The position numbers were made by a program, and so were the translations under genes. Below are positions 21,440 to 62,115 of a stretch of DNA of 64,000 bases, one piece after another. Each line of letters starts with the position of its first letter. Position 1 is the first letter of the stretch. The stretch comes from an uncultured Victivallales bacterium (GTDB taxonomy: Bacteria > Verrucomicrobiota > Kiritimatiellia > UBA8416 > CAYOBW01). The stretch covers positions 1 through 64,000 of the forward strand of contig CAZJYI010000021.1 of NCBI GenBank assembly GCA_964550025.1. The letters run 5' to 3'. The notes under the pieces are model-generated. The model did no database searches. It was not told the DNA's origin and saw only the letters and a program-made list of their open reading frames with translations.

Positions 21440-21640
21440 GGGCGTAAATTCGAATCTCGAAATCTCCGCCGCTGGCGGAAAACAAATCCGAATCTCAAAA
21501 GGGGGGAAACATGGGAGAACGGGAAAGAAGACGCAGAATTCTCTCTCCGTTTCGGTCATTTGGGTTTTCAGATTTCGAATTTGTTTCGGATTTCGATATT
21601 CGGATTCCGGGTTTGTGCTACACACACCCCTCCGACCTAG
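21440..21640. repeat. AT-rich intergenic region with GATTTCGAA/AATCTCGAAATC-type short repeats
   Basis: aaattcgaatctcgaaatctcc ... cagatttcgaatttgtttcggatttcgatattcggattcc. Related to the AGATCTC/AGATTTC heptamer family at 31950 and 53139. Confidence 0.45.
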
Positions 21641-28232: not shown

Positions 28233-28718
28233 GTGAAGGCATTGATCGTTTACTACTCGTTCGAAGGCAATACGCGGTTTCTGGCCGAACGGATGGCGGA
28301 GACGACCGGTGCGGAGTCGCTCGAACTGAAACCCGTGCGGGAGATCCAGTCGAAGGGGTTCATGAAGTTCATCTGGGGCGGAAAACAGGTTGTGAGCCGC
28401 AAGTGCCCCGAGTTGCAGCCGCTTGACAAGAATCCCGCGGACTACGACTTGCTCTTCGTCGGTACGCCGGTCTGGGCGTTTACCTACGCCCCGCCGCTGA
28501 GGACGTTCTTCAGTCAGGTGGAACTGTCCGGGAAGAAGATCGCCCTTTTCTGTTCGTGCGGAGGAGGCGCCGGCAAGACCCTGAAGCGGATGGCGGGGGC
28601 GTTGGCGGGCAACGAGCTCCTCGGCGAGATCTGCTTCGTGGAACCGCTGCGATCCGGGACGGAAGCCAAGGGACAACAGGCGCGCGAGTGGGCCGAGCAA
28701 ATGGCGAAGCAGGCCTGA
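28233..28718 (+). CDS. Flavodoxin-like protein
   Basis: 161 aa. MKALIVYYSFEGNTR flavodoxin signature. Confidence 0.8.
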   Translation: MKALIVYYSFEGNTRFLAERMAETTGAESLELKPVREIQSKGFMKFIWGGKQVVSRKCPELQPLDKNPADYDLLFVGTPVWAFTYAPPLRTFFSQVELSGKKIALFCSCGGGAGKTLKRMAGALAGNELLGEICFVEPLRSGTEAKGQQAREWAEQMAKQA

Positions 28719-28857: not shown

Positions 28858-29028
28858 ATGGCATACGTGATTTCAGATGATTGCACCATGTGCGGGGCCT
28901 GCAAGGATGTTTGCCCGGTAGAGGCGATCAACGAAGGGGACCCCAAGTACACGATCGATGCCGAGGCATGCACGGACTGCGGCATGTGCGCGGACGAGTG
29001 CCCGGTCGAGGCGATTTCCGCCGGCTGA
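28858..29028 (+). CDS. 2x[4Fe-4S] ferredoxin (56 aa, below the ORF-track length cutoff)
   Basis: Own translation MAYVISDDCTMCGACKDVCPVEAINEGDPKYTIDAEACTDCGMCADECPVEAISAG. Two CxxCxxCxxxCP motifs. Confidence 0.8.
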   Translation: MAYVISDDCTMCGACKDVCPVEAINEGDPKYTIDAEACTDCGMCADECPVEAISAG

Positions 29029-29053: not shown

Positions 29054-29091
29054 GACCCGGAACGTTGTGCGTTCCGGGTCTTGTGCTTTGG
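29054..29091. terminator. Bidirectional rho-independent terminator between convergent genes
   Basis: GACCCGGAACG ttgtg CGTTCCGGGTC, a perfect 11-bp stem, followed by ttgtgctttgg. Confidence 0.55.
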
Positions 29092-29130: not shown

Positions 29131-30642
29131 TTACGGCATTGCCATCCGCGCCACTTCCAGGCGGTCGGCCTGGGAGTGGTCGAGCTGAATGCGGGGACCG
29201 CGTTCGAGCTGCACGGTCCACGGGTCGCTCGCGGTGGCGCGCGTGAGGAGCGAGAAGACCACCCCCGCCTGGATTCCTTCGGGCCAGGGACCGGCGCAGC
29301 CGGAGAACCGGCCGCGGTCGCCCTCGCGCAGGAGGGAAAGCGTGAGGGAGGGCTGTTCGCCCGTGCCCGTCTCGCGTTCGCCGGGGACGGGCAGGCCGTG
29401 GACATCCGTGACCGGGTGGTCGAGCTCGTTGTCGAAGCGATCGAGAACGTCCCGCGGGTGCAGGTGCTCCAGCCTTTCCGCGGCGTCGTGTGCGCTCTTC
29501 TCGTCCATGCCGCTACGCACGAGATGCCCTTCCCAGAGCTGGTGTGCGCGCTCGATGTGCGCGGCTTCCTCGTGGCCTTTCGGTGTCAGCTTCAGCGTCT
29601 GGCTGCGTGCGTCGTGTGCGGCCAGCAGCTCGCGGGCAACCATGTGTCGCACGGCCTTGCGGATCCGGGCGGGGGGGAGGGGAACGTCCGAGAAGCGACC
29701 GCGGCCCTCGTAGACCGCTTTGAGGATGTCCTCGATGTCCGATTGCGGGACGAGGCGTCGTCGCCTCAGCCATCCGGCCAGTATGCCGTACCGCGGCGCG
29801 AGAGTCAGGCCGACCATGAACAGCAGGAATCCGACGAACATAATGGAGCCTCCGCCGGAAGCGTTGACCCACTCCGAGAAGTAGAGTCCCAGTACGACGG
29901 ACAGGATGCCCATGAGTGCTGCGATGACCATCATGCGGGGCAGGCGATCCGTCAGCATGTAGGCCAGCGCCGCCGGCGTGATCAGCAGACCGACGATCAT
30001 GATGACGCCCACCATGGATATGCCGGCGACACATACCAGGGCGATCATGACCGTCAGCAGGATATGGATGAAACGGGTGGGCAACCCGATCGACGCCGCC
30101 ATGGTCGGGTCGAAGCTGACGATCGTGAAATGGCGGTAGAAGACGATGATCGCACCGAGAACCAGCGAGGCGACGACCGCGCTGAGCCACATGTCCGGCC
30201 AGGAGACGCCATAGATGTCGCCCTGGAAGAAGTGGTTGAGATCGATGTTGATGTGCTGCTGGAAACGGGTGAGAATCACGACCCCCGCGGCGAAGAGACC
30301 GGTGTAGATAATACCGATCGCCGTGTCTTCGGCGATGCGCCCGATATTGCTCAGGAAACTGATGCAGACAGAGGTGAGCAGGGCCGCGATCAGCGCGCCG
30401 AGCAGCAGACCGCCGGCCGTGAAACCGCCTGCGAACACGGCATTCATGACGAGATAGCCTATCCCAACCCCGGGCAACAGCGCGTGGCTCATCGCGTCGC
30501 CTATGAATGCCATCTTCCGCAGAATGATGTAGCAGCCCAGAACGGCGCAGGCGACGGCGATCGTGGACCCGCCCAGTGCCCCTTTCACGAAGTAGGCGTG
30601 TGTCCACGGTTCGGCAAACGTGTTGTACAGCCATTCCGTCAT
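29131..30642 (-). CDS. Metal ABC transporter permease (ZnuB/MntB/TroC family) fused to a DtxR/MntR-family metalloregulator and a FeoA/SH3-like domain (YtgCR-like)
   Basis: About 290 aa of permease with 8-9 TM helices. Then DIEDILKAVYEGRG...ARIRKAVRHMVARELL (winged HTH), a metal-binding/dimerisation region, and C-terminal LTLSLLREGDRGRFSG...VVFSL (FeoA-like). Confidence 0.8.
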   Translation of the reverse strand: MTEWLYNTFAEPWTHAYFVKGALGGSTIAVACAVLGCYIILRKMAFIGDAMSHALLPGVGIGYLVMNAVFAGGFTAGGLLLGALIAALLTSVCISFLSNIGRIAEDTAIGIIYTGLFAAGVVILTRFQQHINIDLNHFFQGDIYGVSWPDMWLSAVVASLVLGAIIVFYRHFTIVSFDPTMAASIGLPTRFIHILLTVMIALVCVAGISMVGVIMIVGLLITPAALAYMLTDRLPRMMVIAALMGILSVVLGLYFSEWVNASGGGSIMFVGFLLFMVGLTLAPRYGILAGWLRRRRLVPQSDIEDILKAVYEGRGRFSDVPLPPARIRKAVRHMVARELLAAHDARSQTLKLTPKGHEEAAHIERAHQLWEGHLVRSGMDEKSAHDAAERLEHLHPRDVLDRFDNELDHPVTDVHGLPVPGERETGTGEQPSLTLSLLREGDRGRFSGCAGPWPEGIQAGVVFSLLTRATASDPWTVQLERGPRIQLDHSQADRLEVARMAMP

Positions 30643-31403
30643 TGCGCCCTGTTCCCCCGGCTCCAGCTAAGATGACGCAGCTTGCCCCCGTACACCTCGG
30701 TGAGGAGACTCTCCTGCAAAACATCGCGGGGTTCCCCGTATGCGAAGACGCGGCGATTGAGGATGACGACACGATCAAAGAACTCCGCGGCGGTCTCCAG
30801 GTCGTGGTGAACAACGATGACCGTCTTGCCCTGTTCGCGTGCACCCGACAGAAGGCCGGCGATGGCGCGCTCGGTGGCCGCGTCGACACCGGCGAAGGGT
30901 TCATCGAGAAGGAGGATGTCGGACTCCTGCGCCAGGGCGCGCGCCATGAAGACGCGCTGCTGCTGCCCTCCGCTGAGCTGTCCGATCTGCCGGTCGCGGA
31001 GCTCGAGCATGCGCACGTCGTTCAGCGCCCGGCGCGCGACCTCGTGGTCGGCGCGACGCACCGGCTGGTACCAGCGGATGTGCCCATAGCGTCCCATGAG
31101 CACGACGTCCCAGACCGTGACCGGGAAGTTCCAGTCGATTTGCCCGCGTTGCGGGACATAGGCAACGCGGCCCCGCGCGTGTTCCACCTCTTCTCCAAAG
31201 AGCCGCACGGTGCCGTAGTCGCGATCCACGAACCCCATGATCGACTTGATGACGGTGGATTTGCCCGCGCCGTTGGGACCGAGGATGCCGACCACGGATC
31301 CGCGGGGGATGTCCAGGGACACGTCGATCAGCACGGGCTTGGTCTGGTAGGACACGGTCAGGTGCTCGATGGTCACGGCTGAAGTGACGTCACTCATGGC
31401 CAT
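30639..31403 (-). CDS. znuC: Metal ABC transporter ATP-binding protein (ZnuC/MntA/TroB family)
   Basis: Start MAMSDVTSAV by codon arithmetic. GPNGAGKST, LSGGQQQRV, LLLDEPFAGVD. Confidence 0.85.
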   Translation of the reverse strand: MAMSDVTSAVTIEHLTVSYQTKPVLIDVSLDIPRGSVVGILGPNGAGKSTVIKSIMGFVDRDYGTVRLFGEEVEHARGRVAYVPQRGQIDWNFPVTVWDVVLMGRYGHIRWYQPVRRADHEVARRALNDVRMLELRDRQIGQLSGGQQQRVFMARALAQESDILLLDEPFAGVDAATERAIAGLLSGAREQGKTVIVVHHDLETAAEFFDRVVILNRRVFAYGEPRDVLQESLLTEVYGGKLRHLSWSRGNRAQ

Positions 31404-31941
31404 CTTCCCGCTGTAGACCGCGGTCGAGCTTGCCGAGACGGGGCTGCAGCGAAAGCTCGACGGTGGCCGAGAGGTTGTGTCCGTCTCCGGGAGACCAGAT
31501 CGTCCGGTCCGCGCAGAGAGCCTTGTCCCGCAGAAGCTCGATGCGTAGCGGGACAGGGCGGCGCGCGTCCTCCGCCGATGGCGTGGCTTCGACGTGAAGC
31601 TCGACGGAGTTGCCCGTGAATGACAGGTTCGTGACGGTGAGCGGCATGCCTCGTCGCACGTCCTCTTTCCATTCCAGGATGGCCTCCCCGCCGTGGCGTA
31701 CAACAATGCGCGGCGCATCGGATGCGGGGCCGGCAGCGAGGGCGAACGGGTCCCGGATCGCATCAAAGACCGGAGTGAGGCGCAACGTGCATGCGGCGGT
31801 CTCGGTGTGCTCGACGGGATCGTGGTGCGCGTGGACTTCCCGGGAAAGCGAAACCTCGATGGAGCGGGTCATCAGAAACTGGCACACTCCGACGCTGCCG
31901 AGCATCAGGATGGAAACAGCGATGGCGTAGACGAAGCGCAT
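31390..31941 (-). CDS. Small membrane-anchored hypothetical protein inside the metal-uptake operon
   Basis: 183 aa. N-terminal anchor MRFVYAIAVSILMLGSVGV. No recognisable motifs. Overlaps the znuC start by ~14 nt. Confidence 0.45.
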   Translation of the reverse strand: MRFVYAIAVSILMLGSVGVCQFLMTRSIEVSLSREVHAHHDPVEHTETAACTLRLTPVFDAIRDPFALAAGPASDAPRIVVRHGGEAILEWKEDVRRGMPLTVTNLSFTGNSVELHVEATPSAEDARRPVPLRIELLRDKALCADRTIWSPGDGHNLSATVELSLQPRLGKLDRGLQREDGHE

Positions 31942-31949
31942 GGCGGAGA

Positions 31950-32127
31950 GTCTCAGATTGCGAATCTCAGATCTCAGATCTCAAATCTCAAATCTCAGAT
32001 TTCAGATCTCAGATTTCAGACCTCAGATTTCAGACCTCGGACCTCAGATTTCGGGTCTCACATTTTACATCCCAGATGTTGCGTACGGGAAATGGTGGCG
32101 GATCTGAGATCTGAGATTTGAGATATG
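31950..32127. repeat. Heptamer microsatellite (TCTCAGA/TTTCAGA/TCTCAAA) of ~16 tandem units plus a 4-unit inverted copy
   Basis: Read directly: tctcagattgcgaatctcagatctcagatctcaaatctcaaatctcagatttcagatctcagatttcagacctcagatttcag... Then cggatctgagatctgagatttgagat at ~32100-32127. Confidence 0.75.
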
Positions 32128-32144
32128 TGATCCCGGATCCCCCA

Positions 32145-33068
32145 TCACTCGCCCCTCAGTGCCTCCACAACGGTCAGCGTGTTCTCGCGCATCATGCCGA
32201 GGTACGTTTCGCCGGCGCTTCCGTCCTCACCCATGGCGTCGGAGTACAGTTCGCCGCCGATCTTGACGCCCGCTTCCCCCGCGATCTGGCGGATCATCTT
32301 GGGGTTGACGGAGGTTTCCACGAAAATGGCGGGTACATTGAAATCCTTGATGGACGCGACCACCGTGCGCCGTCTCTGCGGCGTCATCCCCCCGCCGATC
32401 TCCGAACCGGTCGACCAGCCGACGGGGCTGCGCACTTTGAAACCGTAGCGGGCGGCAAAGTAGTTGAATGCGTCGTGGCTTGTGACGAGCACACGTTTCG
32501 CCTTGGGAATCGTGCTGACCTGCTTCTCGATCCAGGCGTCGAGGGCGCGGAGCTGTTGCAGGTAGAGGTCGGCGCGGGCCTGGTACGAGGCGGCCCCCTC
32601 CGCGTCAATCTTCATCAGCGCGCCCAGAATGTTGTTTACGTAGAGCGCGGCGTTGCGCGGATCAAACCATGCATGCGGGTCCTTGACCATCTGCCCTTCG
32701 TACTGGAGGTCCAACGGCTGAATCCCGTCCGTGCAGGTCACCAGGGGCTTGTTGCCGTTGTCCTTCGCCAGCGAAGCCATCCAGTTCTTACCTTCGAGAT
32801 GCAATCCGTTCTGAAGACAAAGGTCCGCCGTCTCCACGAGACGGCTGTCTCCCGGCACGGGCTGGTAGACGTGAGGGTTCACGCCCGCCCCCAGGATGCA
32901 GATAACCTCGCAACGGTCTCCTGCTACCTGCCGCGCCAGGTCGGCGGTCTGGGTTGTCGAGCAGACAACGCGCGGTTTCCTGGTCGCTTCTGCGGCGCCT
33001 GCTTCCGTCGCACAGAGGAGTGCGAGGGCCGCTGCCAGACCCGTGAACAGTATCCTGCTACCTGTCAT
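32145..33068 (-). CDS. znuA: Metal ABC transporter substrate-binding protein (ZnuA/TroA/MntC, cluster A-I)
   Basis: Start MTGSRILFTGLAAALALLCATEA (signal peptide). HVYQPVPGD, VTSHDAFNYF, metal-ligand His/Asp positions. Confidence 0.85.
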   Translation of the reverse strand: MTGSRILFTGLAAALALLCATEAGAAEATRKPRVVCSTTQTADLARQVAGDRCEVICILGAGVNPHVYQPVPGDSRLVETADLCLQNGLHLEGKNWMASLAKDNGNKPLVTCTDGIQPLDLQYEGQMVKDPHAWFDPRNAALYVNNILGALMKIDAEGAASYQARADLYLQQLRALDAWIEKQVSTIPKAKRVLVTSHDAFNYFAARYGFKVRSPVGWSTGSEIGGGMTPQRRRTVVASIKDFNVPAIFVETSVNPKMIRQIAGEAGVKIGGELYSDAMGEDGSAGETYLGMMRENTLTVVEALRGE

Positions 33069-33210
33069 CGAACCGTTCCTCCTGCTGATCCCACTCGCTC
33101 TACTCCTCTGCGCCATACTACGGACCTGCCACTGGACGCGGAAGCAAAAAACGGCGGAACACGGTTTTTCAATTGAAGCGTGCCGTGCCAATCCGTACAG
33201 TCACGCCACT

Positions 33211-47507: not shown

Positions 47508-47878
47508 GAGCGGGAGGAGTGGGATTATGATTGGGGAGGGGAATGGGAATTCTCCCCGATCGTAATCGCACTCTCTCGCGCCCTGATCGCCTCGGCGTGG
47601 TCTCTTGGGACGATTGGTGAGGGGGAGGAGTGGGATTATGATTGGGGAGGGGAATGGGAATCCTCCCCGATCGTAATCGCACTCTCTCGCGCCCTGATCG
47701 CCTCGGCGTGGTCCTCTGGGGACGATTGGTGAGGGGGAGGAGTGGGATTATGATTGGGGAGGGGAATGGCAGTTTTCCCCGATCGTAATCGCACTCTCTC
47801 GCGCCCTGATCGCCTCGGCGTGGTCTCTTGGGACGATTGGTGAGCGGGAGGAGTGGGATTCTGATTGGGGAGGGGAAC
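47508..47878. repeat. Tandem repeat, ~111-bp unit x ~3.3 copies (periods 111, 113, 110)
   Basis: Unit GGGAGGAGTGGGATTATGATTGGGGAGGGGAATGGGAATTCTCCCCGATCGTAATCGCACTCTCTCGCGCCCTGATCGCCTCGGCGTGGTCTCTTGGGACGATTGGTGAG. Contains an internal hairpin GGGGAG...CTCCCC. No spacers. The track ORFs inside it are short and interrupted. Confidence 0.8.
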
Positions 47879-53138: not shown

Positions 53139-53244
53139 AATTCCAAATCCCAGATCTCAGATTTCAGATTTGGGATCTCAGAGACCAAAGGCCAGAGACC
53201 AGTATGTCCAAGTTCTCCCTCTGAAATCTGAGATCTGAAATCTG
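53139..53244. repeat. AGATCTC/AGATTTC heptamer-type inverted repeat element
   Basis: aaatcccagatctcagatttcagatttgggatctcagagacc ... ctgaaatctgagatctgaaatctg. Confidence 0.6.
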
Positions 53245-60582: not shown

Positions 60583-60840
60583 GTGTTTGTTCCTCTTCAA
60601 TGTCCCCACCGGCCTTGTGCCGGTGGAACGAAAGACCGATATACAGCGGTAATACCGCCGGGCATCCTGAGCCCGGATGGAGCAAGAGACGAGTGAAATC
60701 TCTCTTTGCTCCTGGCGGGCTCCATGACTCCTGTGAGTTTGTGTTGTCGGCTGTTCGCGTTGTCTGTCGCCGGCTGGAAGCCGGCACCACTCGCCACCGG
60801 CTGGAAGCCGGCGCTACTTGTCACCGGCTGGAAGCCGGCG

Positions 60841-62115
60841 TTACACGATCTCGCACTTCTTGGCGTCGAAGCGGGCGGTCTTGCCTTCGCGCATGGACTT
60901 CATCGCCATCTGGAGGATGGTCTGTGTCCGGAAGGCGAGGTCCATCGGGCTCCAGGTGTTCTTGTCGCGCTTCCTGGCGCACTCGATCAGGTTCTTCCAG
61001 TGTTCCGTGTTGCTCTCACCGCGCTCGATCGGGATGCGCTGCGGGGCCTTGGCGCCCTTCTGCCGGATGGGCATGAAGAAGATCTCCTTGTTCTTCTCGA
61101 TGGAGAGGCTGCCCTCCCAGCCGCGGATGACGGGGCAGCGCTGGCCCGCGCCGCGGCGGTCCGTCGTCTGGTAATCGTTGGCCTGCGTTCCCAGGACGGA
61201 GATCGTGACGTTTTCCGGGTACTGCGCGATCAGGTTGAACGTGTCGGGCACCTCGCGCAGCTTGTAGGAATAGCGATGAATGCCCCCGACCGCCACGACC
61301 TCGGAAGGGAAACCCACGCCGAGGATATCCACCACCTGTGTCAGGCAGTGCGGGTAAAGGTCGGTTACAGGACCGCCCGCGTAGTCTTCAAAGAGGCGCC
61401 AGCGGAAATAGCGGTCCACGCTGAATTCGCGCTTCGGTGCATCCCCCAGGAACGCCTCCCAGTTGAGATCCTTGCCGGGCTTGGCCTTGGCGTCGTCGAC
61501 GCGCATGCCGCGCTCTCCCCAGTCGCCCACGCGGAAAAAGCCTGTTTCGCCGAACAGCGGTTGTCCAATCAGCCCCTCCTGCACCAGTTTCTTCATCTGG
61601 TGCCAGACACCGTCGCTCATGGCCTGTGTACCGACCTGGAAGACGCAGTCCGACTTGGCCACAACGTCTGCCAGTTTCTTGGTCAGTTCGAACTGGCGCC
61701 AGTGGGTTACCGGCTTTTCGCAGTAGACGTGTTTGCCTGCGTTGACTGCGTCAATAGCCGCGTAGCCGTGATGATGATCCGGCGTGGCGATGCAGACGAT
61801 ATCTACGTCCTTGTCCTGCAACAGTTCGCGGTGGTCGTCGTAGCCGCGCGCGATTCCGAATTGCTTCTTCCTGCCCTCCATGCGGGGGCGATAGGTGTCA
61901 CAGACCGCCACGAAATCGAGCGGCATTTTCTCGCGGTCGCGCAGGTGGCGGATCATGTTCATGTGCCCGCCCGCGCGCCCGCCGGCGCCGATGAAGCCGA
62001 TGCCGATGCGGTCGTTGGCGCCCTGCGCCTTCGCGATGTTGAAGGCCGAAACGGCCGCCGCGCTCGTGGCCGTGGCCTGGATGAAGCTCCGTCGAGACAT
62101 GTTCTGCTTCTTCAT
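60841..62115 (-). CDS. Gfo/Idh/MocA family oxidoreductase with twin-arginine (Tat) signal
   Basis: MKKQNMSRRSFIQATATSAAAVSAFNIAKA Tat motif. GIGFIGAGGRA Rossmann. CEKP. Confidence 0.85.
   Translation of the reverse strand: MKKQNMSRRSFIQATATSAAAVSAFNIAKAQGANDRIGIGFIGAGGRAGGHMNMIRHLRDREKMPLDFVAVCDTYRPRMEGRKKQFGIARGYDDHRELLQDKDVDIVCIATPDHHHGYAAIDAVNAGKHVYCEKPVTHWRQFELTKKLADVVAKSDCVFQVGTQAMSDGVWHQMKKLVQEGLIGQPLFGETGFFRVGDWGERGMRVDDAKAKPGKDLNWEAFLGDAPKREFSVDRYFRWRLFEDYAGGPVTDLYPHCLTQVVDILGVGFPSEVVAVGGIHRYSYKLREVPDTFNLIAQYPENVTISVLGTQANDYQTTDRRGAGQRCPVIRGWEGSLSIEKNKEIFFMPIRQKGAKAPQRIPIERGESNTEHWKNLIECARKRDKNTWSPMDLAFRTQTILQMAMKSMREGKTARFDAKKCEIV

Follow-up and report, generated by a model that had tools for sequence, protein, structure and literature searches.

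The 64,000-nucleotide stretch of DNA from an uncultured Victivallales bacterium that was analysed here (the window) contains a reading frame in which an ABC-3 metal permease runs into a DtxR-like regulator. This raises the questions of whether the two belong to one gene, and what a regulator attached to a membrane transporter does. We consider it probable that in this one polypeptide a permease of the PsaC/TroC type is joined at its natural C-terminus to a regulator of the DtxR/MntR family, which senses metal to repress its own operon. The function is most likely the sensing of Mn or Fe, possibly Zn, that turns the operon off.

Organization of the operon

The fusion gene is the final member of an operon of four genes, all on the reverse strand, in the order binding protein, orfX, ATPase and permease::regulator.

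33069..33210 (.), divergent promoter region of 142 bp that separates the operon from a Na/Ala symporter gene
32145..33068 (-), cluster A-I substrate-binding protein of 307 aa with a signal peptide (PF01297, E=6e-80)
31951..32132 (.), heptamer array identified by TRF, placed after the binding-protein gene and before orfX
31390..31941 (-), orfX, a membrane-anchored protein of 183 aa with an N-terminal TM helix, an HAHHDPVEH segment and a beta-rich domain
30639..31397 (-), ABC ATPase of 252 aa (PF00005; MntA-like in NCBIfam)
29131..30642 (-), permease::regulator fusion gene, 503 aa and a stop codon (ORF, Pfam, AF2)

Overlapping stop and start codons link the orfX, ATPase and permease genes, with the stop codon of the ATPase gene overlapping the permease start in the sequence ATGA. 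The four-gene operon is translationally coupled. The module is kept across about ten phyla. The binding protein is TroA/AztC-like, with AztC and MntC as its relatives in NCBIfam, and the motifs NPHVYQP, DPHAWF, SHDAF, and YSDAM, read from the translation, form a His-His-His-Asp ligand set. Its relatives in the PDB (8svc, 5kzj, MntA, YfeA, MntC, and TroA) score 160–194 bits, and chlamydial YtgA (6nsi) scores 88 bits. The place of orfX is filled by an ORF of 157–214 aa (103 aa in locus L009) in 73 of 80 related genome loci. No relatives of orfX were found in Pfam, NCBIfam, or the PDB, profile searches of Pfam and the PDB with 34 orfX homologues gave no consistent family, and a structure prediction from three sequences reached a pLDDT of 48.7, too low for use. 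The search for known RNAs and riboswitches in the operon returned only sub-threshold matches to miRNA hairpins, located at the heptamer hairpin.

The permease and the regulator are encoded by a single gene

The segment 29131..30642 (-) is an open reading frame of exactly 503 aa, and its product can be divided into a permease, a junction, and a three-domain regulator tail.

29785..30642 (-), ABC-3 metal permease domain, aa 1–286, with an N-terminal amphipathic helix and nine TM helices (PF00950)
29746..29784 (-), junction, aa 287–299, formed by the amphipathic, Arg-rich helix with which the permease itself ends (ILAGWLRRRR) and then P299-Q300
29587..29745 (-), divergent winged helix-turn-helix, aa 300–352 (AF2 secondary structure)
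29383..29586 (-), DtxR-family metal-binding/dimerisation domain, aa 353–420 (PF02742, E=3e-17)
29134..29382 (-), Pro/Gly-rich linker, aa 421–440, and SH3/FeoA-like beta domain, aa 441–503 (sub-threshold FeoA match, AF2, Foldseek)

The initial annotation had described about 210 residues beyond a complete ABC-3 permease, and the tail measures about 217 aa. The order of domains it proposed, from the permease through a DtxR-like regulator to an SH3/FeoA-like domain, agrees with Pfam, AlphaFold2, and Foldseek, and the placement of an ABC-3 permease N-terminal of a DtxR-like domain in one ORF bears out the YtgCR-like architecture. The Pfam families named at the time divide into PF00950 and PF02742, which match significantly, and PF01325 and PF04023, of which the former has no match and the latter stays below its gathering score.

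The segment is a genuine single gene in which the permease is joined to a complete metal sensor of the DtxR/MntR type. Gene calling predicts an identical product of 503 aa from 11 contigs, among them contigs from four separate metagenome assemblies (ENA ERZ23498639; JGI 3300009431, 3300007510, and 3300013119). PF00950 and PF02742 occur together in all of the 120 best homologues of 1042 (E<=1e-5), and the motif APRYG...RRR.VPQ...ED crosses the junction in frame in 67 of the 82 loci examined. Because the identical protein is found in at least four independent assemblies and more than 1000 proteins share the architecture, a frameshift or assembly artefact that fused separate permease and regulator genes has a negligible probability. 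The in-frame junction motif, which is kept across phyla, and the AlphaFold2 model of the 503-aa protein (pLDDT 90, pTM 0.81), which is confident over the junction, also speak against such an artefact. The host had been called a PVC-type bacterium, consistent with the nearest relatives, at 70–78% identity, being metagenome-assembled genomes of Kiritimatiellia, Victivallales/Lentisphaerae, and Verrucomicrobia.

Permease domain

PF00950 matches residues 17–280 with an E-value of 4e-61 and 207 bits against a cutoff of 20, and covers profile positions 4–256 of 258. The Asp-x3-His coordination motif D49-x3-H53 aligns with the sequence GDAISH of PsaC, which contains D46 and H50, and both D49 and H53 are invariant across 99 homologue sequences. 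In PsaC, D46 and H50 define the Asp-x3-His metal coordination site in TM2 (PMC8346216). The profile match, the Asp-x3-His site, and the operon context all place the protein among the ABC-3, or cluster A-I, permeases. The permease had been labelled ZnuB-type, which is imprecise: phmmer finds PsaC (7kyo/7kyp) with an E-value of 6.5e-38 against 3.8e-20 for ZnuB, and the ZnuB equivalog of NCBIfam (NF007089) scores 88.6 bits, short of its cutoff of 284. AztB (195 bits, cutoff 280) and SloB (184, cutoff 460) score above ZnuB, yet below their own cutoffs, and PsaC/TroC/AztB-like is the better description. Foldseek matches the permease to 7kyp (E=1e-13). Since the operon carries a single permease gene, the transporter presumably forms a complex like PsaBC, built around a permease homodimer.

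Regulator tail

In the AlphaFold2 model, the tail consists of a helix at residues 300–311, a one-turn remnant of a helix at 316–319, a recognition helix at 324–336, a wing, three dimerisation helices, and five beta strands at 443–499. The first helix of the helix-turn-helix holds the invariant pair E304-D305. The recognition helix is basic (PARIRKAVRHMVA) and is followed by R337 and the wing. Position 329, which corresponds by our own alignment to DtxR Gln43, is Arg or Lys in 87 of 99 sequences, Ala330 is present in 86 of 99, and position 332 is Arg or Lys in 77 of 99; the mean net charge of the helix is +2.9 in the family and +4 in the window protein. The DtxR N-terminal helix-turn-helix model PF01325 does not match the protein even at E<=10, and the PDB HMM alignments of the tail begin at the recognition helix. 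Helix 2 is shortened to one turn in the clade of the window by a deletion seen relative to other phyla, and among close relatives the helix-turn-helix drifts far faster (42% identity) than the dimerisation domain (67%) and the permease (82%). The blindness of PF01325 to this helix-turn-helix, the single turn of helix 2, and the fast evolution of the domain count against the model of repression.

PF02742 (Fe_dep_repr_C) matches residues 353–420 with an E-value of 3e-17 and 63 bits against a cutoff of 27. The metal-ligand positions are H367, E371, H385, E389, E392, and H393, together with D305 from helix 1. All 99 homologues share residues E304, D305, H367, H385, E392, and H393, E371 is kept in 98 of 99, and position 389 is Glu or His. 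From the DtxR sequence and an alignment with IdeR, we take D305, H367, E371, H385, E389, E392, and H393 to be DtxR positions 10, 79, 83, 98, 102, 105, and 106, so that the ligands of the dimerisation domain would map to DtxR H79, E83, H98, C102, E105, and H106. In this presumed numbering, Asp replaces Met10 and Glu replaces Cys102 of DtxR, which is the MntR-like signature of Mn-responsive members.

The C-terminal beta domain matches FeoA (PF04023) in the isolated tail with an E-value of 7.5e-4 and 20.0 bits, below the gathering score of 23. PF04023 is carried by one homologue (P0069), and the domain is missing from a class of close relatives of about 420–431 aa. The helix-turn-helix and the SH3-like domain are supported instead by the predicted structure. 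Foldseek aligns 205–235 columns of the tail with whole three-domain regulators at E-values from 3e-8 to 1e-5, namely 5zr6 (a Mn-dependent repressor), IdeR, DtxR, ScaR, SloR, and MtsR, and the PDB HMM matches are 5zr4, IdeR, ScaR, and DtxR. The best solved relative is the Mn-dependent repressor 5zr4/5zr6.

The junction and the question of tail release

The permease passes into the tail through its own C-terminal helix; PsaC ends about 13 residues past the aligned APK motif. P299 is invariant in the 99 sequences and forms an invariant pair with Q300. The AlphaFold2 model contains no flexible linker between the permease and the tail, as the junction is short, ordered (pLDDT 91–96), and conserved, and neither the model nor the conservation reveals an evident protease-accessible linker or cleavage loop. 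The short, ordered, and conserved junction counts against the model of repression. Proteolytic release is suggested for the window protein by analogy with Chlamydia only. We found no demonstration in the literature of cleavage or DNA binding by permease-repressor fusions outside Chlamydia.

An internal translation start at the junction, in place of proteolysis, was considered and rejected: the window junction contains no start codon, with L297 encoded by CTC and V298 by GTC, and the tail is therefore made solely as part of the fusion. At the equivalent residues, ATG, GTG, or TTG is present in 34 of 67 loci, with an SD-like motif upstream in 2 of these 34. Matches of 202–250 aa look like close, free-standing relatives of the tail but are pieces of fusion genes located on short contigs; one of them (P0125) runs in frame into the permease, and others begin inside the last TM helix.

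Promoter region and heptamer array

In the proposed mechanism, the transporter would import a divalent metal, Mn2+ or Fe2+ and possibly Zn2+, which the cytoplasmic tail would bind through its invariant Glu, Asp, and His ligands. The metal-loaded tail would dimerise, and its basic recognition helix would bind promoter DNA and repress the operon. No recognisable operator and no inverted repeats were found in the 142-bp promoter region, and no match to the sigma-70 consensus on the operon strand. The sole perfect palindrome in the region, TTCAATTGAA at 33168–33177, was rejected as an operator, since it is not significant and is matched in 46 of 100 shuffled sequences. A search for DtxR-box-like palindromes near the fusion gene had been proposed; the DtxR consensus box, the Planctomycete palindrome described below, and inverted repeats have no matches in the window. 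Alignment of upstream regions within the clade of the window shows no common palindrome, only -10-like blocks such as TGCTATAGT, which is shared by loci L007, L012, and L013. The lack of a palindromic operator in the window or common to the clade counts against the repression model.

In Planctomycete relatives, the 16-bp palindrome TTTTGAnTAnTCAAAA is located beside -10-like hexamers upstream of the binding-protein gene at 8 loci; the 826 kb contain only 11 matches in all, these 8 included. The palindrome is a clear candidate operator, and fits autoregulation by a dimeric repressor in the family; it could also serve another regulator.

The array between the binding-protein gene and orfX had been suggested as a possible operator of the fused regulator. 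In favour of this role, it adjoins the operon and its unit, TCTCAGA, is near-palindromic. It is composed of about 14 copies of ATCTCAG at 31951–32077 and about 4.6 inverted copies at 32101–32132 (TRF), is identical in four assemblies, and has a predicted RNA fold of -71 kcal/mol (z = -2.8). The array lies within the operon, downstream of the first gene and away from the promoter. The relatives lack a comparable gap: in the closest ones the tblastn matches are 0–44 bp apart, and in L085, where the fusion protein is 82% identical, the genes overlap at the position of the array. The unit recurs at 53147–53241, and period-7 arrays of this or other units are present at about nine other sites in the window. 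Operators of the DtxR family, at about 19 bp, have the form of interrupted palindromes and not of tandem 7-bp arrays. An operator function of the array is thus very improbable. The array is a lineage-specific insertion inside the operon and one of a set of heptamer repeats spread over the window.

Alternative roles of the tail

The tail might never be released and might not act mainly in transcription, but serve the transporter as an integral metal sensor on the cytoplasmic side, gating it by trans-inhibition, similarly to the C-terminal regulatory domains of MetN and ModC but placed on the permease. Within the tail, conservation is highest at the metal ligands and in the junction motif (APRYG, P299, Q300, E304, and D305); the helix-turn-helix and SH3 domains drift. 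The linker-free junction modelled with high confidence and the lack of an internal start codon agree with gating, and because TM9 of PsaC is located where the two permeases of the dimer meet, both tails of a homodimer should begin close together. Gating would not, however, need the exposed basic residues of the recognition helix, which are kept family-wide, nor would it account for the promoter palindrome of the Planctomycete loci or for chlamydial YtgR, which is cleaved and binds DNA. Known trans-inhibition domains sit on the ATPase rather than on the permease, and we regard gating as unlikely. Repression of the operon by a tail that stays membrane-tethered and is not proteolysed, as in the membrane-tethered regulators ToxR and CadC, or perhaps in full-length YtgC in E. 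coli, has a similarly low probability. Full-length YtgC represses in E. coli, and a membrane-anchored repressor is described as conceivable (PMC5599777). The short and ordered junction, which offers no evident cleavage loop, suits this arrangement, and a homodimeric permease would pre-position two tails. Against it, C-terminal cleavage products of YtgCR were observed in Chlamydia and in E. coli (PMC5599777), and the ATPase dimer on the cytoplasmic face would probably leave scant room for DNA near the two-fold axis.

These two roles may also be combined. The free-living unit could be a conserved four-gene module distinct from ytgABCD, in which the tail, starting where the TM9 helices of a homodimeric permease meet, would act without proteolysis as an on-board sensor that throttles transport, represses while tethered, or both. 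In the Kiritimatiellia/Victivallales clade, where helix 2 was lost, the balance might have shifted towards gating. We give this combination little weight. The preferred reading remains a metal-sensing repressor of its own operon, which may act either cleaved or tethered.

Distribution of the fusion

The initial annotation had suggested a greater age or a broader range for the fusion than is usually assumed. According to Thompson et al. 2012, as reported in the review PMC5599777, orthologous permease-repressor fusions had already been found in 11 bacterial phyla, and the suggestion is not supported. The best 80 of at least 563 species-representative matches are all fusions and come from about ten phyla; they include the cultured carriers Bremerella cremea JCM 17758 and Desulfogranum japonicum DSM 18378, and none of these 80 loci is from Chlamydiae. 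The window fusion is an ordinary further example of an architecture on record in many free-living phyla, and leaves the general picture unchanged.

Experimental knowledge of permease-repressor fusions comes entirely from Chlamydia, an obligate intracellular pathogen. In our survey, free-living anaerobes and PVC bacteria, cultured strains among them, commonly carry the fusion. A fourth gene, conserved but unannotated, accompanies it, and the Planctomycete loci add a candidate operator. The cultured carriers and the candidate operator provide tractable systems in which to ask whether the regulator is released, acts tethered, or gates transport.

Comparison with known metal transport systems

The gene is a free-living member of the kind of fusion first characterised as chlamydial YtgC-YtgR. 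YtgCR of Chlamydia trachomatis (CT069, ytgABCD) also combines, in one ORF, an ABC-3 permease at the N-terminus with a metal-dependent DtxR-like repressor domain at the C-terminus, and both fusions are encoded in the operon of the transporter that they are thought to regulate. The ytg operon has two permeases, YtgC and YtgD, and no orfX, whereas in the window operon a single permease gene is accompanied by orfX. The window protein has 503 aa and a third, SH3/FeoA-like domain; YtgCR presumably has 451 aa. The window binding protein is distant from YtgA, to which it scores 88 bits against 160–194 for AztC, MntA, YfeA, MntC, and TroA, and functional transfer from Chlamydia is therefore by architecture only. 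Cleavage and Fe dependence have been demonstrated in Chlamydia only. The N-terminus of YtgC resembles TroC and its C-terminus TroR, according to the review PMC5599777, and metal-dependent binding to the ytg promoter and cleavage have a chlamydial precedent (PMC5599777, PMC7755916, PMC6504234).

The three-domain DtxR regulators 5zr4/5zr6, IdeR, DtxR, ScaR, SloR, and MtsR have the same metal-ligand positions as the window tail, at a sequence identity of only 18–25%. Unlike them, the tail is not free-standing, its helix 2 is truncated in the clade, and it has no PF01325 match. The Treponema operon troABCDR likewise encodes a cluster A-I importer of Mn, Zn, or Fe with a DtxR-family regulator at the 3′ end beside a permease gene, and the window binding protein resembles TroA in its His-His-His-Asp site, with a score of 160 bits against it. 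TroR is encoded separately, alongside two permeases, TroC and TroD, whereas in the window the regulator is fused to a single permease. PsaC of the Streptococcus pneumoniae manganese importer PsaBC is the nearest solved permease, with nine TM helices, an N-terminal amphipathic helix, and the Asp-x3-His site, and in both systems the single permease gene implies a homodimer. PsaC stops soon past the APK motif, without a regulatory tail, whereas the window permease continues into one.

Domain structure of the fusion protein

The permease and the regulatory tail are encoded in one reading frame:

29131–30642, minus strand: fusion ORF, 503 aa

Of the four families proposed for it in the initial annotation, Pfam recognises ABC-3 (PF00950, residues 17–280, E=4e-61) and the DtxR-family metal-binding and dimerisation domain (PF02742, residues 353–420, E=3e-17). 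The DtxR N-terminal helix-turn-helix (HTH) family PF01325 has no Pfam match in the tail, and FeoA (PF04023) is below threshold in the isolated tail (20 bits vs 23, E=7.5e-4). The AlphaFold2 model of the fusion, built from an alignment of 99 homologues, has a pLDDT of 90 and a pTM of 0.81, with every segment at 50 or higher. The modelled permease half contains nine transmembrane helices preceded by an N-terminal amphipathic helix. It is followed by a short amphipathic helix (residues 287–296), an HTH region composed of helix 300–311, a one-turn remnant (316–319), helix 324–336, and a beta wing, and a C-terminal part with three helices (354–406) and five strands (443–499). In Foldseek searches of the PDB, the first half resembles the permease chains of PsaBC (7kyp, E=1e-13), and the second half aligns over 205–235 columns with complete three-domain regulators, including the Mn-dependent repressor 5zr6, IdeR, DtxR, ScaR, SloR, and MtsR. 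Because these matches span all three domains, the domain order initially proposed, with its winged HTH and SH3-like parts, is correct. The fusion is confirmed as an observation, and its original interpretation is supported in part. The label "ZnuB-type" is loose: the permease is much closer to PsaC (6.5e-38) than to ZnuB (3.8e-20), and NCBIfam places AztB/SloB ahead of ZnuB. The Asp46/His50 channel site of PsaC is retained as D49/H53.

Junction between the permease and the regulator

The chain of PsaC ends approximately 13 residues beyond the aligned APK motif, whereas the fusion runs on into the DtxR tail; therefore, the helix of residues 287–296 corresponds to the permease's own tail. The DtxR N-terminus begins directly after it, and the AlphaFold2 model has no low-confidence linker at the junction. 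In practice, a frameshift artefact can be ruled out, since the same protein, without any difference, is predicted on 11 contigs, among them four separate assemblies, both Pfam domains occur in one protein in all 120 best homologues (of 1042), and the in-frame junction motif APRYG-x-RRR-x-VPQ-xxx-ED is present in 67 of the 82 loci examined. The DNA of the four assemblies is identical through the neighbouring repeat.

The junction in the window lacks an in-frame start codon (codons CTC and GTC), with residue 297 being Leu (CTC, 29749–29751), and no Shine-Dalgarno enrichment was found upstream of the junction Met in the 67 loci. Therefore, the tail is made only within the fusion. About half of the loci (30 of 67) have Met directly ahead of the invariant (V/I/A/L)-P-Q, and initiation there would yield a protein of DtxR length. 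Apparent free-standing close relatives of the tail, returned by the representative search, are pieces of fusions on short contigs.

Predicted metal- and DNA-binding sites of the tail

Residues E304, D305, H367, H385, E392, and H393 are invariant across the 99 homologues, E371 is present in 98, and position 389 is Glu or His. We take these positions to be equivalent to DtxR Glu9/Met10, His79, Glu83, His98, Cys102, Glu105, and His106, using the DtxR sequence, in a numbering that reproduces the known ligands, and an alignment with IdeR. Asp and Glu in the tail stand for Met10 and Cys102 of DtxR. Guedon and Helmann (2003) are reported to have described this replacement as the signature of Mn-responsive members, and the best solved relative of the tail is a Mn-dependent repressor; therefore, the sensed metal is probably Mn2+ or Fe2+. 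By comparison with the PsaA, TroA, and ZnuA motifs, the ligand motifs of the translated binding protein of the operon presumably read His-His-His-Asp; given such a site, the metal is possibly Zn2+.

Among the helical parts, conservation is lowest in the HTH: it shares 42% identity with close relatives, while the permease shares 82% and the dimerisation domain 67%. Helix 2 of the HTH is about seven residues shorter throughout the window's clade. The recognition helix pattern R-[LIV]-x-[RK]-A-[LVI]-[RK]-x-[ML] is kept family-wide, the position matching DtxR Gln43 in our alignment is Arg or Lys in 87 of 99 sequences, and the mean net charge of the helix is +2.9 (+4 in the window protein), which argues that the tail retains nucleic-acid binding. 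The SH3-like domain changes most rapidly (35% identity) and is absent from a class of proteins of approximately 420–431 residues (homologues P0015, P0016, P0026, P0027, P0034, P0041, and others; loci L007 and L009–L013), which includes some of the window's nearest relatives. This class and that of about 500 residues are interleaved within the window's own clade (74–78% identity), so the SH3/FeoA-like domain was lost or gained recently and repeatedly.

Organization of the operon and the heptamer arrays

The fusion is the last of four minus-strand genes, and overlapping stop and start codons link orfX, the ATPase, and the fusion, which contains the only permease of the operon:

32145–33068, minus strand: TroA/AztC-like binding protein (PF01297)
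31390–31941, minus strand: orfX, 183 aa, no known family
30639–31397, minus strand: ATPase
29054–29080: hairpin with an 11-bp stem, GACCCGGAACG-CACAA-CGTTCCGGGTC
28858–29028, plus strand: 2x[4Fe-4S] ferredoxin
28233–28718, plus strand: flavodoxin

The flavodoxin and ferredoxin genes are convergent with the fusion gene and run toward its 3' end, and the intervening hairpin is likely a bidirectional terminator. Both genes recur in the 89%-identical relative, and the ferredoxin also recurs in the 82%-identical one. The four-gene order, including an ORF at the position of orfX (157–214 aa; 103 aa in locus L009), is found in 73 of 80 related loci, and this ORF spans about ten phyla. OrfX has an N-terminal transmembrane helix and conserved T.TF..DPFAL and NE.F.EA.P / T.WS.PG motifs. 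Its homologues often carry a His-rich C-terminal tail; the window copy instead has HAHHDPVEH after the transmembrane helix. Searches of Pfam, NCBIfam, and the PDB returned no relatives of orfX, only three word-sharing homologues were present among 5.8 billion proteins, and its AlphaFold2 model is unusable (pLDDT 48.7). OrfX may be a periplasmic metal-handling accessory.

A heptamer array separates the binding-protein gene from orfX, and other tandem repeats lie elsewhere in the window:

31951–32077: ATCTCAG, approximately 14 copies
32101–32132: inverted copies of the unit
53147–53241: ATCTCAG again, as an inverted pair
4267, 17968, 20579, 21559, 22321, 41987, 44559, 52077: other short tandem arrays
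47508–47877 and 60765–60844: 111-bp unit (3.3 copies, 95% identity) and 27-bp unit (three copies)

Period-7 arrays with other units occupy about nine further sites, and the units across the window are CGCCACC, AGTGGCG, TTCAACA (six copies), GAATGAT, ATCTCAG (14), GCGAGTC (six), CTGATCA (five), and CACTGAT (seven). Nearly all the short arrays have a 7-bp period; that at 21559 was reported with 25 bp. At least two sites, 31951–32132 and 53147–53241, are hairpin-capable inverted pairs. In the closest loci, the tblastn matches flanking the same gap are 0–44 bp apart, and in the 82%-identical locus L085 the genes overlap. The suggestion that the array is the operator is not borne out: it lies inside the operon, has little or nothing in its place in relatives, and belongs to a type that recurs across the window. 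The array is specific to its lineage and is part of a repeat class spread over the window, which looks like a genome-wide class not tied to the fusion operon. The RNA of the array can fold into a long hairpin with a slipping register (−71 kcal/mol, z = −2.8). REP elements of the mal and his operons act in mRNA processing or stability, and if the array has a role, it more likely acts in a similar way, on the transcript between the part for the binding protein and that for the membrane components.

Candidate operators and proposed mechanism of regulation

The true promoter region of the operon (33069–33210) contains no inverted repeats with 6-bp seeds and neither a DtxR box nor a Planctomycete-type palindrome. 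It has one 10-bp palindrome, which is statistically weightless, and upstream regions aligned at the clade level share nothing beyond −10-like blocks. In eight Planctomycete loci (Pirellulales and others), the region upstream of the binding-protein gene contains the 16-bp palindrome TTTTGAnTAnTCAAAA, and several of these copies abut a −10-like hexamer:

TTTTGAnTAnTCAAAA sites (locus:position): L015:2660, L019:2677, L052:2588, L058:2743, L068:1838, L074:2744, L081:2742, L082:2727

These account for eight of the 11 matches in 826 kb with at most two mismatches; an additional copy is at L068:787. The palindrome is a good candidate for an operator of the fusion family, namely that of the fused regulator in Planctomycetes. 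Separately, six Desulfomonile-group loci (L021, L032, L043, L048, L049, L054) share a block, GGCGCGCA-N8-GGGGAATGGGCGGA, approximately 120–160 nt upstream of the binding-protein start, which could be the end of an upstream gene or a regulatory element.

We consider it fairly probable that the tail is a metal-responsive repressor like YtgR: metal entering through the transporter would be sensed by the cytoplasmic tail, which would then, possibly after being cut off, repress its own operon. The Planctomycete palindrome provides indirect support for autoregulation in the fusion family. That the tail represses while tethered to the membrane is unlikely. Direct gating of the transporter by the tail (trans-inhibition) is similarly improbable; it would fit the extreme conservation of the ligands and junction next to a relaxed HTH, the absence of a linker between permease and tail, and the location of TM9 of PsaC at the dimer interface. 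The family-wide recognition helix bears on the side of repression.

Distribution of the fusion and comparison with known systems

At least 563 matches were confirmed when species-representative genomes were scanned, and the best 80 of them are all fusions. These 80 come from Kiritimatiellia, Victivallales/Lentisphaerae, Verrucomicrobiota, CSSED10-310, Planctomycetota (including cultured Bremerella), Desulfobacterota (including Desulfogranum japonicum DSM 18378 and Desulfomonile), Deferribacterota, Acidobacteriota, Hydrogenedentota, and Eisenbacteria. Among the matches listed, the closest to the window are metagenome-assembled genomes of Kiritimatiellia, Victivallales, and Verrucomicrobia (70–78% identity), in agreement with the initial guess of a PVC-type genome.

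The initial annotation suggested that the fusion is older or wider than usually assumed. According to a review (PMC5599777), Thompson et al. (2012) reported orthologous permease–repressor fusions in 11 bacterial phyla, and the two halves already appear by name in JGI annotation strings; therefore, this breadth is not new. The by-products of the analysis, namely the conserved orfX, the Planctomycete palindrome, and the heptamer repeat class, may be more useful than the finding of the fusion. All experiments on permease–repressor fusions in the literature searched are chlamydial, with none found outside Chlamydia. The solved relatives of the window's binding protein are AztC-like proteins, MntA, YfeA, MntC, and TroA (160–194 bits), whereas chlamydial YtgA reaches only 88 bits.
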